Source: an uncultured bacterium
GTDB lineage: Bacteria > UBP6 > UBA1177 > CALOFP01
Length of the DNA stretch: 64,000 bases
Assembly: GCA_942492635.1 (NCBI GenBank)
Contig: CALOFP010000001.1
Location: 799,039-863,038, forward strand
Reading direction: 5' to 3'
Position numbers and translations under genes: made by a program
The notes under the pieces: generated by a model
Database searches by the model: none
What the model was told of the DNA's origin: nothing
What the model saw: only the letters and a program-made list of their open reading frames with translations
In this document: piece after piece, positions 53,459 to 63,951 of the stretch
Layout: each line of letters opens with the position of its first letter
How positions within the stretch are numbered: position 1 is the stretch's first letter

Positions 53459-56400
53459 TTACTCAACTATCAATGTACCCAGTTTCTTAATATCCGTATT
53501 ATCTGTCTTGCGAAAGAACATTTTCCTCCACCAAGGCTGAAAATTGTCGGAAACTGTATCTGTTTTAGTGTTGTTCAACATATCTCTTAAACCAATCCAT
53601 TCATCATTTTTCGTTGCGGCTATGCACCCTGTAGTACGACCGGGTTTGTGCAATCTAAAATGATCCCTTCCTGTTGGACCATGAATGTCGTCTCTAGGAC
53701 TGTTATCAATGAAATCCAATCTAAAAAAGTCTGGATTAGGATGGTAAAGAATCTCATATTCTCCTTTAGGTATTGGATCACCGTAGGGCTTACCACCAGA
53801 TTCAACACTGATTTCAAAATGTTCTCCGGTATCTGTATCGGTAGCGGATAAAACACCGGCTTCAGAGTTATAAAGAATTTCCACAACTAATCCTCTCGTA
53901 TCCACAAAATTCACCGGATCATTGCCGCAATACTCATAAAGATTCAACGTCCCACCTTTGAACCTTATCGGATCTTTTGCTGTCCATCTTCCGGTTTCTG
54001 GGTCGTAATCTCTTGCTCCGAAACGAACGAGGCCGGTATCCTTATCGTGCAGGCCTCCGGCGAAGCCGAATTCGATGTCGAATGTGCCTGTTTCGCTCGC
54101 AATTTTTCCGAATGTGTCGTAGTCAATTCTCTTTTTAACATCACCTGTGGATGATTCCACTACCATTCGGACACTTCCGATATGGTCTGAGATAACCAGG
54201 TACTTTTTCCATCCGCTTGAGGTGTTTTTCATGATGTAATCCGGAACATTCTTTTTGGATGCATAGACATAGTATTCAACCAGATTGTTCGACGCATCGA
54301 GTTTTGCAACAGGGTTGAGGCTGTCTTTATAAAGGAATTTGTATTCCCAGATATAACTAGGCTCTCCAATTCTTTTGACAAGTTTTCCTATTCTCCTGTT
54401 TCTTCCGTCAACAATATACTCGATTTTTTTAGTTTCGGAAACACCGTCACCAATATTTACTTCAAGTAGATTACCGAATTGATCGTAGTGGTAGTTGACG
54501 ACTTCATCTGTTTCGCTGTTTGTCCTGCTCTTGAGGTTGCCGCTGAGGGTGTATTCGTAGGAATATTTCCCATATTTGGTCAACCTGTCATGGCTGTCGT
54601 AAGTTATTTCACTTGCAGGGACACTCTTTGCGGAATCGGATGATGTAAAGGATGTTCTGTTGCCCTGTTTGTCATAAGTGTATGTTTCAATTACTGAGTT
54701 GTTTTTACTGACCTCTATAATTCTTCCTGCATCATCGTATTCGTAGCTCTTTGTTACTGCCGGTGCATCCTTTATTTTTTCTTCAAGAGTGGTGATTCTT
54801 CCGAGATAATCCCTGTGGTAGAATTCTTCACCAATTTGGCCATTGTATTTTACATTGAAGTAATCAACGGCACCGTATTTGGAAGTGACCTCTTTTATTT
54901 CGCCATATTTATTGTAGGTGTAAACTTTTTTAGATTTCACTGTGTTTCCTGTGACATTTTTTACCACACTGATGAGTGAAGTGTTCGGTTCATACTCAAA
55001 TTTGATATCCTCAACTCCAGAAACAATTCCATAATCATCAATCGCAATATCAACACCTTTGAAGGACAGTTTAGTAGGCTCCATAAAATCGTTATACGTC
55101 ATGGATACCGCACCCCAGGTGCTGCTGTTTACTTTCAAGCTTTCACTACTTAAAAGTGATCCGTCGTAAGTGTAGTTCAGCGTGGCCACATCGCTTTCAT
55201 CGCCTCTTTCTATGGTTCTTTTCATACTTTCGAGTTTTCCTAAAGCGGAACTCGAGCTATGATAACCATATTCCACTTTTCCATTGCTGCCGATCCTCAC
55301 TTCTCTCAACTTACCGTCTCCGTTGGTAGCGGTTCCGGAATCACAGGAGTTATCCCAGCAGTATTCAATTTTCTCAACGCCACTATCAGACGGGATTTCA
55401 ACAGAAGTTACCCGAAGATCCTTATTGAGACCGTAGGTTGTTTTAAGGTTTCCCGCTAAAACACCTCCAACTGAAGGCGGCTGGTAGTACTGTTCCGTAT
55501 CATAAGGATCGTAATTGAATTCGTGACGCTCATTTTTCGGAGTTGTTATGGACACCATGTTTCCGTCGGCATCGTAATCGAACAGAACGTCTCTGTCACC
55601 GGGAAGAGTAGCTGCCAGAGGTCTTCCGATGTTGTCCCAATCTGTGAAAGATGTTGTTACAGACTTTGCTGAATTAACTTGCACCTTAACTGCCTGTAGA
55701 TAGCCTCTTCCATTGTAGGAATACTCTGTCAGTCTTGATCCCTGAGTTATTTTGTGAATCTTTCCCGAAGCCGCACCGTTTCCAGCTCCATTGTATTCAT
55801 ATTTAACGGGATTGAATGTGGTTCCTGCACCGAAACCGGCTTCTATCACCCGACCTACGCCGTTAAGTACTTGGTAGTTTTTAATATTTCCGTGTGCGGC
55901 ACTTTTCTCAACGGATATCTTTCTGTCTGATCTTGTGTAGGTATTTATGATTTTTCTGACAGAGTCCAAAGACTGAAGATCAGCAACAGGTGCCGCCCCA
56001 CCGACAAAATATGTTGTGGTTGTCAATGAATCAAAGTCCATCATCGCTTCAGAATCTTTGAAAAGGATCGGAACGCCACCTTCCCTTTCTTCTTTCACTA
56101 TTTTTTGGTAGGTGTGTGAGCCGGTTTGGTACAAAGTTTTGTCAATACTTGGCTTCGCCGGTCCAAAAACTGAACTCGGAATGGAGTGCTGTTCTAATTT
56201 AGTGCCATCGCTTTTTACCACCTTTGAGTACATTCCATTCATCGATTCAGCAAACTCATTTGTCCCGTCTGGCTTTATCACAACTGCTTTTTTACTTATC
56301 CCTCCTTCAGAAAAGTATTTTGTATTCACTCTTCCCTGAGGTGAAGTCTCCTGAATTTTCATTGCAACCCTGACAGATTCCTGGAGAAAATTTGAAGGAG

Positions 56401-63600: not shown

Positions 63601-63951
63601 TGCGCCTGCAACGTTGAGCGGGTAAAAACCTGCTCGTCCGTAATATATACCTCCAAGGGCGATAAGAGAATTTGAAGGAATTTTTGTTTTGATATACTTT
63701 AGAAGTTGATAAACTTCCTGGTTTCTTAAGTCATGGTCTTTCTGGCTGTCCCCACCTTTAAAATGAGCAGTTATAACCCAAAGATCCTTTTCTCCGGGAA
63801 TATTAATCCGGGCCCATTCAAAATTTCTGAAGGAGAGAAAAGAATCATTCCATGCACCTTTCTCCTTTATCGGAAATCTACTTACAATTATATTCGGATT
63901 TATTCCTCCACCCAATCGGTAATAACGATAGGAACCTGTTATACGGTCCAA
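60613..63951 (-). CDS. partial (N-terminus beyond window) giant cysteine-rich surface protein with EGF-like modules, repeated W/C-rich ~50-aa domains and C-terminal FN3-like domain; probable upstream part of the IS-disrupted teneurin-like RHS gene
   Basis: The ORF stays open to the window end, and its annotated start is a TTG. It carries the same repeat families as 31204..34173 (TWNGxxWSxPxxCxWxCxxGFHKEN). A C-terminal FN3-like region (ISLVWTGGDPDENNIVYSVYFGDAPDNM) lies just before the stop at the IS200 boundary. Confidence 0.7.
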   Translation of the reverse strand: MDRITGSYRYYRLGGGINPNIIVSRFPIKEKGAWNDSFLSFRNFEWARINIPGEKDLWVITAHFKGGDSQKDHDLRNQEVYQLLKYIKTKIPSNSLIALGGIYYGRAGFYPLNVAGASIFKFGPQHLIKFGTQDQTTSGYTNPGQFLLFSKSLENFAIGETVEKYSYSTGLTLQNTPLMIRDFKPQHMSCSSYQCRSNNNAYECKSENGISFCGCSDGYIEINGNCVVDRCKNAAQIENGQCINDGSSSSVSYDCDPGFVLRYDSGNRPNCVSKCPAGKVWSREECVADPCINVSCSGHGQCISENGQATCKCNDGYFLDANNLECVNPCENNSECGDFPCEVRVTTMNENSTADSWEQPDDICGGECEGFSCSWNGKCVPEKSIFGQLPVCKCNKGYVNSGYMQCVDVCNTINCSVNGFCIKSEEGEPNCSCDDNYEGTLETCHKRCEPGECYYQGSCIKGKCEDVVCRNNSCSSNSRCKVNLLRQPVCECNDGFHKDPNTSKCVSNTKKVSCPNNPPANATLDSKDVEVYWDGTKWSSPRNCSWRCKSGYHTEDYKKCISNTRQEDCKEPDLPEHATLIKSKVTTTWNGIKWSTPEECKWECEDGFHKENGSCVDNSITKTEVCKNEAPEHATSILVDVEVTWNESTGAWNEAATCDWECYEGFEKIEGACVGSETKSVYCNDDLNNFPLNALPIVKKVTVKWNGTEWEKPGLCDWTCKNGFVREADKCVEGVCNTGSIEQIACGHNLNGEKTRSCNKGKWEQWSNCIDRDECRNGNFEIETRYCQPGYMKKRKCVDGKWGSYGNCTKKSCSNISCGNSGKCLVDETTGDPFCSCEKGAVADGFVCIENSCKQKDCPTHSFCKLDIYGNAACECREGFVLDSKGNCVPTSCYPNDPCPSYYPGTVCFYSTELQQISCHCKPGEEIVNPTDGCVKINENHGMTDKGSCIRGYNIDLSLRMCVPNKAPHKAEAIFPRDGAAFVSGTTDKISLVWTGGDPDENNIVYSVYFGDAPDNMKLVEVCTEELLEHPGQAGSYIKLCAKEGANKKFEIEGLLPNKKYFWKIVSEDNPHRVATTSELFEFKIIPDTSAPTWPADATIHADPKSFGAMIE

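Follow-up and report, generated by a model that had tools for sequence, protein, structure and literature searches.

An IS200-type element appears to split a bacterial teneurin-like toxin gene with an EGF-repeat arm inside an FN3 domain

Introduction

Bacterial teneurin-like proteins (TLPs), only recently characterised, are regarded as the source of the teneurin receptors of animals. This work concerns a stretch of 64,000 nucleotides from an uncultured bacterium (contig CALOFP010000001.1, positions 799,039 to 863,038; hereafter the window), in which an insertion sequence (IS) of the IS200 group lies between two long open reading frames (ORFs), one encoding EGF-like and FN3 modules and the other an RHS protein, all three on the minus strand. 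We conclude, with a probability of roughly 0.88, that the two ORFs are the halves of a bacterial teneurin-like toxin gene of ~3,360 codons with an EGF-repeat arm, which a 638-bp IS200-type element has divided within an FN3 domain. A first-pass annotation, made from the letters alone, had read the locus as a giant teneurin-like toxin gene split by an IS200/IS605 insertion; the present analysis confirms the finding, supports its main interpretation and corrects the coordinates of the IS.

Known TLPs share a domain order in which variable adhesion modules are followed by TTR, TIP, FN-plug, NHL and YD-shell domains and a polymorphic C-terminal toxin, with the immunity gene directly downstream (PMC13018210). 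The TIP domain sits between TTR and FN-plug, and the TTR–TIP pair is present in 96% of TLPs, while the N-terminal arms in a set of 139 TLP genomes carry Ig-, FN3-, PKD-, SLH-type and similar modules, among which EGF is not listed (PMC13018210). The FN-plug has a conserved G-S autoproteolysis site, which is S724 in BiTLP of Bacillus inaquosorum (PDB 9ifo/9pt5; Raoelijaona et al., Nat Commun 2026, PMC13018210), and the Rhs autoprotease motif is absent from mammalian teneurins (PMC13018210). BiTLP is the best structural match of the protein studied here, with the same order from TTR to toxin and likewise a gene directly downstream, and FN3, a known N-terminal module of TLPs, is also found in our protein. 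The kind is thus a known one, that of bacterial TLP polymorphic toxins; what is new here is an arm that adds eight EGF-like modules, other Cys-rich repeats and a degenerate endonuclease/exonuclease/phosphatase (EEP)-like domain, the missing G-S motif of the FN-plug and a host from an uncultured lineage, whose QueA is at most 66% identical to anything else. Unlike BiTLP, the gene is also interrupted by an IS.

The interrupting element resembles the IS200 group (IS200 and IS1541, with IS608 and ISDra2 as models), being likewise small, with only a Y1 HUH transposase and with hairpins at both ends and over the ribosome-binding site (RBS) of tnpA. ISDra2, a member of the IS200/IS605 family, inserts 3′ of a pentanucleotide, TTGAT, and its seamless excision has been shown to restore a gene (PMC2806898).

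Each of the two ORFs encodes part of one FN3 domain

The upstream ORF is open from 60613 to the window edge, so its N-terminus lies outside the window, and the RHS ORF (53459-59995, minus strand, 2,178 codons) has matches to TTR_TEN1-4, TEN_YD-shell and RHS_repeat. It had been proposed that the former, N-terminally incomplete and EGF-rich, ends in an FN3 domain at the IS border and that the latter opens with the second half of one, and both statements hold: the first ~24 residues of FN3 domain 2 stand at the end of the upstream ORF and the remainder at the beginning of the RHS ORF (Table 1). The W16 and P17 residues of the W-P motif in strand A, encoded upstream, and W35, encoded downstream by the first right-flank codon, are each at least 90% conserved, and the IS separates them. 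An exhaustive HMMER search with a junction-spanning query returned 2,160 proteins at E ≤ 1e-10, and among the best 148 representatives, which we examined, 31 gave a single alignment running from the start of FN3 across the junction into TTR. No indel at the junction was seen in the MAFFT alignment. The AlphaFold2 model of the joined 246 residues, built with 25 homologues, has a predicted local distance difference test score (pLDDT) of 91.4 and consists of a seven-stranded FN3 domain, whose strand B (AMIEWN) spans the junction, followed by TTR. Foldseek matched this model to FN3 domains and to the TTR of fly, mouse and human teneurins at root-mean-square deviations of 2-3.6 Å. As one FN3 domain is split between the ORFs and 31 homologues have a continuous FN3–TTR segment, these data argue for a single gene before the insertion.

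Excision of 59978-60615 in silico gives one frame with 3,300 sense codons in the window and no stop, reading ...ADPKSFGAMIE/WNQALDD... across the joint (slash). The upstream ORF stops at a TAG that is itself the opening triplet of the IS, and the last 18 bases of the IS supply both the apparent TTG (59995) and GTG (59989) starts of the RHS ORF and its residues LGVVVD, so that the real gene sequence restarts at TGG (59977). The RHS ORF consequently does not begin exactly at the IS end, as had been thought, its first six codons being IS DNA. Deletion of 59998-60605 (608 bp), the span first given for the IS, does bring the ORFs into frame yet retains the TAG stop, and it is with the ends taken from related elements that the fusion is obtained. 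A gene resuming at GTG-GTC-GTT-GAC (VVVD) was also rejected, because these bases are the conserved right end of the IS. The upstream part comprises 1,187 codons and the toxin-bearing part 2,172, in keeping with the protein of more than 3,300 amino acids that had been expected.

The same insertion is found in an independent assembly, Logan ERR9669565, whose contigs L001 and L003 are 99.94% identical to the window; as a second assembly has it, the insertion is not a misassembly. On L001 the upstream ORF continues as far as a GTG start, which has an RBS (GGGAGGGG) before it and a signal-peptide-like segment (MSLRNFLCSILTFFVLFPMLYG) after it; this places the true start of the gene ~177 nt past the window edge. 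Over 3.4 kb, L001 and the window differ in only two places, both single-base homopolymer indels (63787/L001 789 and 61179/L001 3398), which break the ORF in L001, whereas the window keeps the frame; these indels explain why the database protein P0001 is an 892-residue fragment.

Within the window, no further lesions were found in either half, suggesting that the insertion is evolutionarily recent. Neither a Shine–Dalgarno sequence upstream of the GTG/TTG codons in the right-end hairpin nor, on the minus strand of the IS, a promoter-like site facing the RHS part could be detected. Without a promoter-proximal start, a Shine–Dalgarno sequence or a signal peptide, the toxin-bearing part is, as far as its sequence tells, most probably silent.

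Ends and probable target of the IS200-type element

The transposase gene is the only ORF within the 638-bp element, which has no tnpB. As a 155-codon ORF, tnpA spans 60072-60539; the database copy P0003, 100% identical, starts at 60533 and has 153 residues. TnpA is intact; its HUH motif reads HVH and its C-terminal Tyr is present. The only 100% TnpA match on record is P0003 (from the source NCBI contig and the Logan sample) and the next best TnpA is 69% identical; exact-sequence look-ups of TnpA, at 138 and 155 residues, and of the RHS protein P0123 returned nothing. Since this IS thus has no second copy in the collections, its ends were set through relatives, namely an element with TnpA P0026/P0049 (~65% identical) in more than 12 flanking contexts and alignments of six left and six right ends.

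In the P0026/P0049 relative, the left flank always ends in TT(G/A/T/C)AT, the element begins with TAATCGGCTTAAA followed by a hairpin with an 8-bp stem, and the right end consists of the hairpin GCCACCACC-TCT-GGTGGTGG and then TCATTTGAC. The first base of the right flank is T in all of at least 12 contexts, which suggests a preference for T at +1 of the cleavage sites of this IS200 subgroup. In the six-end alignments, our IS shares the hairpins, the right-end ...TTGAC and the start TA(G/A); by homology it starts with TAGATTCACTTAAT, then the hairpin 60601-60583, and it terminates with TCGTTGAC at 59978, next to the right-end hairpin proper (60004-59986). This last hairpin folds weakly on its own (z=-1.1), and both apparent starts of the RHS ORF, TTG and GTG, fall inside it. 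Terminal inverted repeats and target duplication are absent, the flanks TTGAA and TGGAAT not being duplicated. At positions 1-60 of L026, a right end abuts a left end directly with a single T (...TTTGAC/TAATCGG...), an arrangement that a tandem copy or a circle junction would produce. It follows that only one of the two conserved T's comes from the element and that the length is 638, not 639; a 639-bp element including both T's would frameshift the gene on excision and is contradicted by this joint.

The base directly 5′ of the left-end stem covaries with base 5 of the pentanucleotide in four elements: A with T (the P0026 element and L005), C with G (L006) and T with A (our IS, TTGAA). For the right ends, the equivalent pair consists of G and TTGAC. 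This covariation fits the guide–target base pairing known for IS608 (PMC5934647), and the placement of the IS directly 3′ of its pentanucleotide fits ISDra2 (PMC2806898). Both the target pentanucleotide and the +1 T of our IS would thus follow from the pattern in its relatives.

A sub-variant of the related IS with the hairpin loop TCG has one extra T at the left end (left junctions of L010, L019, L022 and L027). A pattern search for the left-end hairpin in genomes gave one match, in Fictibacillus gelatini NZ_KE387234.1 (L002 1560-1578), where an exact 19-nt match is followed by a second hairpin and the nearest 8 kb are free of tnpA; this could be a remnant reduced to its hairpins, an element resembling a miniature inverted-repeat transposable element, or a chance match. 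A blastn search of plasmids with the IS gave only ~74% identity to a 100-bp stretch of Salmonella IS200 tnpA.

The teneurin-like core

By its sequence, the predicted protein is a bacterial TLP. The TTR, YD and Rhs core domains named in the first-pass annotation all pass in profile searches, YD_repeat_2x and Rhs_assc_core both scoring above their cut-offs (Table 1). Residues 86-488 of the RHS ORF align with residues 364-766 of BiTLP, i.e. TTR, TIP and FN-plug, at E=1e-26, and the shell matches 9ifo_A (E ~1e-96) and 9pt5_A (E=3.6e-96) in the PDB, followed by metazoan teneurins at ~1e-30. The NHL propeller, also proposed, is weak by profile (TEN_NHL E=0.018, NHL E=0.076) and is better seen in the predicted fold. 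The AlphaFold model of the residues encoded by 56792-59374, built with 45 homologues, has a pLDDT of 74.6, and a structure search with it found 9ifo_A (6e-22), then teneurins 2, 3 and 4 and Ten-m (~1e-20), then six-bladed NHL propellers, the matches to 9ifo_A and the teneurins extending over ~680-880 columns. This medium-confidence model supports the presence of both FN-plug and NHL propeller despite the weak NHL profiles. The Rhs core motif KDPIRF...VDTRGL is followed by the 142-residue C-terminal domain, and cleavage between core and domain is predicted from the motif.

Table 1. Positions of the gene parts, domains and IS features in the window, with the evidence for each
Feature	Position	Strand	Evidence
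TLP gene 5′ part (N-terminal arm)	60616..64000	-	frame open up to window edge
EGF-like cluster 1, 5 six-Cys modules	62437..63384	-	Pfam EGF PF00008 E=4.7e-7, 30.4 bits (cut-off 21.5), 3 stretches
Four ~55-aa repeats, four Cys each (C...W[ND]G.kW...C.W.C..GF...C)	61780..62442	-	read from translation
EGF-like cluster 2, 3 modules	61150..61515	-	six-Cys pattern; weak EGF-type Pfam matches
FN3-like domain 1, complete	60700..61047	-	Pur_ac_phosph_N (FN3-type fold) E=5.5e-5, under cut-off; FN3-repeat protein P0002 matched
FN3 domain 2, N-terminal piece of ~24 residues (strand A, then the first half of strand B; TSAPTWPADATIHADPKSFGAMIE)	60616..60687	-	aligns with start of pre-TTR FN3 in 31 homologues
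Putative target pentanucleotide TTGAA, directly 5′ of IS left end	60616..60620	-	equivalent site in related IS: TTNAT, TTTAT or TTCAG
IS200-group insertion sequence, 638 bp, in the gene's orientation	59978..60615 (equivalent: 59977-60614)	-	alignment to related IS
Left-end subterminal hairpin CTACTGCC-TAT-GGCAGTAG, 14 nt from IS end	60583..60601	-	DNA fold -8.3 kcal/mol, z=-4.3; kept in relatives
Hairpin over tnpA RBS (typical of IS200)	60487..60533	-	inverted repeat I1, 23-nt arms, 83% complementary
tnpA, Y1 (HUH) transposase, 138 aa	60072..60488	-	Y1_Tnp E=4.9e-37; transpos_IS200 (NCBIfam) 136.8 bits
Right-end hairpin CCACCTCC-TTT-GGGGGTGG and terminal TCGTTGAC	59978..60004	-	GCCACC.CC...GG.GGTGG...TTGAC shared by all six right ends aligned
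FN3 domain 2, C-terminal remainder (strand B from its conserved Trp, up to and including strand G)	59762..59977	-	W35 at least 90% conserved
Teneurin-type transthyretin-like (TTR) domain	59390..59623	-	PF25020 TTR_TEN1-4 E=2e-11, 44 bits (cut-off 27)
TIP-like insertion domain between TTR and FN-plug, approximate limits	58727..59359	-	BiTLP alignment
FN-plug, approximate limits	58082..58654	-	BiTLP alignment and structural match
NHL-type six-bladed beta-propeller, approximate limits	56882..58084	-	weak profiles and predicted fold
YD-repeat shell	54122..56884	-	TEN_YD-shell E=6e-30; RHS_repeat E=1e-15; YD_repeat_2x 73.6 bits
Rhs-associated core, aspartyl autoprotease motifs KDPIRF ... VDTRGL	53888..54121	-	TIGR03696 Rhs_assc_core 81 bits (cut-off 32.5)
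C-terminal toxin domain, 142 aa and stop, Tlde1/YkuD-like	53459..53887	-	Tlde1_dom E=2e-4, 22.2 bits, short of the 30.1 cut-off
Candidate immunity gene, 232 aa, ~6 hydrophobic predicted transmembrane segments	52750..53448	-	10 nt past toxin stop; RBS AGGAAAA
Orphan YD-shell fragment, direct copy of 54491-54644 (154 bp, 95.5% identical)	52515..52665	-	blastn

The C-terminal toxin and its downstream gene

The C-terminal domain (~16 kDa) carries H-x15-T-x-G-C-I (HGPTGRDHFRLHKPGRTTGCI), so that the catalytic motif H-x(14-17)-[ST]-x-G-C is present, as HGPTGRDHFRLHKPGRTTGC, alongside the sub-threshold Tlde1_dom match. Searches of the domain against the PDB and NCBIfam gave no significant match. On the strength of the motif and this match, we consider it probable, with moderate confidence, that the toxin is a Tlde1-type enzyme with the peptidoglycan L,D-transpeptidase fold. 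The 232-residue membrane protein encoded directly downstream, which has no family match, is likely the immunity factor of this toxin. Beyond it, SDSAKS.PASEITYDSHDRLTKYG... occurs a second time in the ORF 52461-52673, where the copy then breaks off; displacement of a C-terminal module or recombination may have left this apparent Rhs remnant.

The N-terminal arm

A pattern search found eight six-Cys EGF-like modules in the upstream ORF, and the same pattern was found in none of the 148 close TLP representatives. The generic Pfam EGF model alone passes its cut-off, in contrast to the teneurin-specific ones (EGF_TEN 17.9 bits versus 65, EGF_Teneurin 21.5 versus 24.3), and in the PDB the upstream ORF matches only the EGF domain of E-selectin, weakly. 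Between the EGF modules and TTR are the four-Cys repeats, further Cys-rich segments and two FN3 domains; the four-Cys ~55-residue repeats, with the signature W-[ND]-G-x-k-W ... C-x-W-x-C-x-x-G-[FY], have no Pfam or NCBIfam family match. The N-terminal domain (63385-64000 on the minus strand, continued in L001 401-576) is EEP-like, with Exo_endo_phos at only E=0.014, and its catalytic motifs are degenerate, LQN replacing LQE, GGIYY replacing GDFN and RDF replacing SDH. The N-terminus itself, which lies outside the window on L001, has a Sec-type signal peptide after the RBS and GTG, and no type II anchor. As this signal peptide, seen only on the neighbouring contig, is all that speaks for the cell surface, the description of the protein as surface-anchored was over-stated.

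Discussion

Our results are best explained by one gene of ~3,360 codons for a secreted bacterial TLP, which before the insertion would have encoded, in order, a signal peptide, a degenerate EEP-like domain, eight EGF-like modules interspersed with other Cys-rich repeats, two FN3 domains, TTR, TIP, FN-plug, NHL, the YD shell, the Rhs core autoprotease and the 142-residue toxin. By likeness to other TLP and Rhs polymorphic toxins, the C-terminal toxin would be enclosed in the shell and released by the Rhs aspartyl protease, and the complex would be displayed on the cell surface by the adhesin-like arm against neighbouring bacteria; the Tlde1-type toxin could then attack peptidoglycan in the target periplasm. 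The 638-bp IS would have inserted by single-strand "peel-and-paste" transposition 3′ of TTGAA, in the codons for strand B of FN3 domain 2, where its TAG ends the 1,187-codon upstream part. That part could still yield a secreted EGF/FN3 protein, the 2,172-codon toxin-bearing part probably remaining silent. As members of the IS200/IS605 family excise seamlessly, reversion is possible: TnpA-mediated excision would restore the intact gene, leaving the predicted donor joint ...GATTGAA/TGGAATCAGG... (also written GCTATGATTGAA/TGGAATCAGGCA) and an excised circle with the predicted junction GTCGTTGAC/TAGATTCAC.

Several observations weigh against this reconstruction. No IS-free allele came to light: the empty-site DNA pattern (flank, N{0,30}, flank) had no match in genome and metagenome contigs, the junction-spanning protein searched against 5.8 billion proteins returned only its own fragment and one FN3 protein, and a scan of metagenome proteins found no IS-free relatives. 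The pre-insertion gene is for this reason a reconstruction. The IS ends come from relatives whose TnpA is only ~65% identical, and the target TTGAA differs at base 5 from the TTNAT of the best-sampled one. Just outside the window, an A-run frameshift in L001 puts the signal peptide and the remaining ORF in different frames; it may be a second real lesion or, given the two other homopolymer indels of L001 at which the window keeps the frame, likewise an assembly error. In the FN-plug (58590-58650, minus strand), the GS(I/V)I(E/G)CQNQxLGE of most TLP homologues is replaced by PYITSEEELCDVVD, with PYITSEEELC at the place of the G-S autoproteolysis motif; the homologues P0157, P0181 and P0138 do not have this motif either. 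Finally, the assignment of the toxin to Tlde1 stays under the Pfam cut-off and has no solved-structure match by sequence.

Some of these points would suit a decaying pseudogene, in which the IS is one of several inactivating lesions and the gene stays non-functional even after excision. The A-run frameshift of the near-identical strain, ~100 nt beyond the window edge, the EEP-like domain without its catalytic motifs, the missing cleavage motif of the FN-plug, and the orphan shell fragment with several mobile elements nearby can all be read in this way. However, without the IS the window has an unbroken run of 3,300 sense codons, the frameshift may be the third assembly error of L001, and some other TLP homologues lack the G-S motif as well, so we regard decay as unlikely. 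The two halves might instead work separately, as a secreted EGF/FN3 protein and a truncated TLP core that starts at the IS-borne GTG/TTG or an internal ATG (MKMLV...) and is exported without a signal peptide. Indeed, the downstream ORF is intact, the database annotates a protein of 2,176 residues (P0123) from GTG 59989, and some TLPs have no predicted signal peptide (PMC13018210). Yet the right-end hairpin encloses the IS-borne GTG and TTG, which have neither a Shine–Dalgarno sequence nor a promoter-like site to serve them, and the downstream product would start with a broken FN3 domain, which makes this quite improbable.

Two further explanations would do away with the split gene altogether. 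If the ORFs had always been independent neighbours with the IS in the intergenic space, as the formal stop and start codon of each at the IS border might suggest, those codons should not be IS sequence, one FN3 domain should not be divided between both ORFs, and FN3 and TTR should not lie in one polypeptide in 31 homologues; we give this view almost no credence. The placement of the IS by repeat misassembly is extremely improbable as well: the Logan contigs do break inside the IS, L001 stopping 36 nt inside the left end (window position 60580) and L003 starting in the left end, but together they cover both junctions, L003 running from the left end through tnpA into the RHS ORF, and this TnpA has a single copy on record. 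A split TLP gene hence remains our preferred reading.

The likeness to metazoan teneurins (Ten1-4, Ten-m), which had been put forward as a match to the eukaryotic architecture, holds for the superfold of TTR, FN-plug, NHL and YD shell and for the EGF-like repeats N-terminal to TTR. The order fits bacterial TLPs, including as it does TIP, an Rhs core predicted to be cleaved, a polymorphic toxin and a candidate immunity gene, and the EGF modules are generic. Metazoan teneurins have a type II membrane topology with an N-terminal intracellular domain, whereas the protein extended on L001 has a signal-peptide-like segment right after its start; they end in ABD and Tox-GHH, for which our protein has no Pfam matches, carrying a Tlde1-like toxin instead. 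It also differs in having TIP, two FN3 domains between EGF and core, and an intact Rhs autoprotease motif. Because the teneurin-specific EGF models fail, the EGF modules are set apart from TTR and there is no type II anchor, the likeness to animal teneurins appears architectural and generic and does not point to a specific relationship. As a long shot, a bacterial lineage may already have had one secreted protein in which an EGF-repeat arm was combined with the superfold of TTR, FN-plug, NHL and YD, so that the animal arrangement could be inherited from a bacterial donor or exchanged with eukaryotes; if true, the EGF-plus-superfold of animal teneurins need not have been assembled only after the transfer. 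More tentative still is the idea that seamless excision of the IS turns this toxin gene into a reversible on/off switch.

With type VI secretion system Rhs effectors and with Tlde1, an L,D-transpeptidase-like effector of that same system, our protein has in common the YD shell, the Rhs core autoprotease, the presumably encapsulated C-terminal toxin and the H-x15-[ST]-x-G-C motif. In the Pfam scans, which covered both ORFs, no N-terminus of the PAAR or VgrG-binding type turned up, and delivery would, to judge from the domains, depend on a Sec-exported adhesin-like arm and not on that secretion system. The candidate immunity protein is a polytopic membrane protein, whereas Tldi1, the Tlde1 immunity protein, is soluble and periplasmic.

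The disruption of a gene by an IS is common and as such routine biology. The locus is of interest as a TLP whose arm is rich in EGF-like modules, the module type of animal teneurins, and whose likely payload attacks peptidoglycan. It also provides a clear example of single-strand IS200 insertion in a domain-coding segment, from which target, guide/target covariation and +1 T preference can be inferred by sequence comparison. Current annotation presents the gene as two proteins that seem unrelated, the start of one lying in IS DNA, so that surveys of domain architecture would miss this TLP.

Neighbouring features of the window

Approximately 4-7 kb downstream of the toxin locus lies a mobile-element cluster, formed by a match to the Rfam group II intron D1-D4 (46116-46346, minus strand; 50.6 bits, above the gathering score) and an adjoining IS21-type element (46847-49155, plus strand) with istA (rve, Mu-transposase C-terminal domain) and istB (IstB_IS21 E=3e-67). 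In addition, 49334-49717 and 49742-50092 (minus strand) encode two paralogous small secreted Cys-containing proteins with a near-identical signal peptide (...SAVCLFAGNLMADCS...) and no family match, and 50148-51098 (minus strand), which adjoins them, a secreted trypsin-like peptidase (Trypsin_2 E=3e-18). This region of small secreted proteins and peptidase has a low GC content, 33% compared to 42% for the window. Farther away, the window's sole taxonomic hint comes from 28152-31040 (plus strand), which encodes a large regulator bearing Reg_prop repeats (E=1e-55), a Y_Y_Y domain and a helix-turn-helix of the AraC type, with no histidine-kinase domain detected. Such an architecture occurs most often in the Bacteroidota/FCB group.

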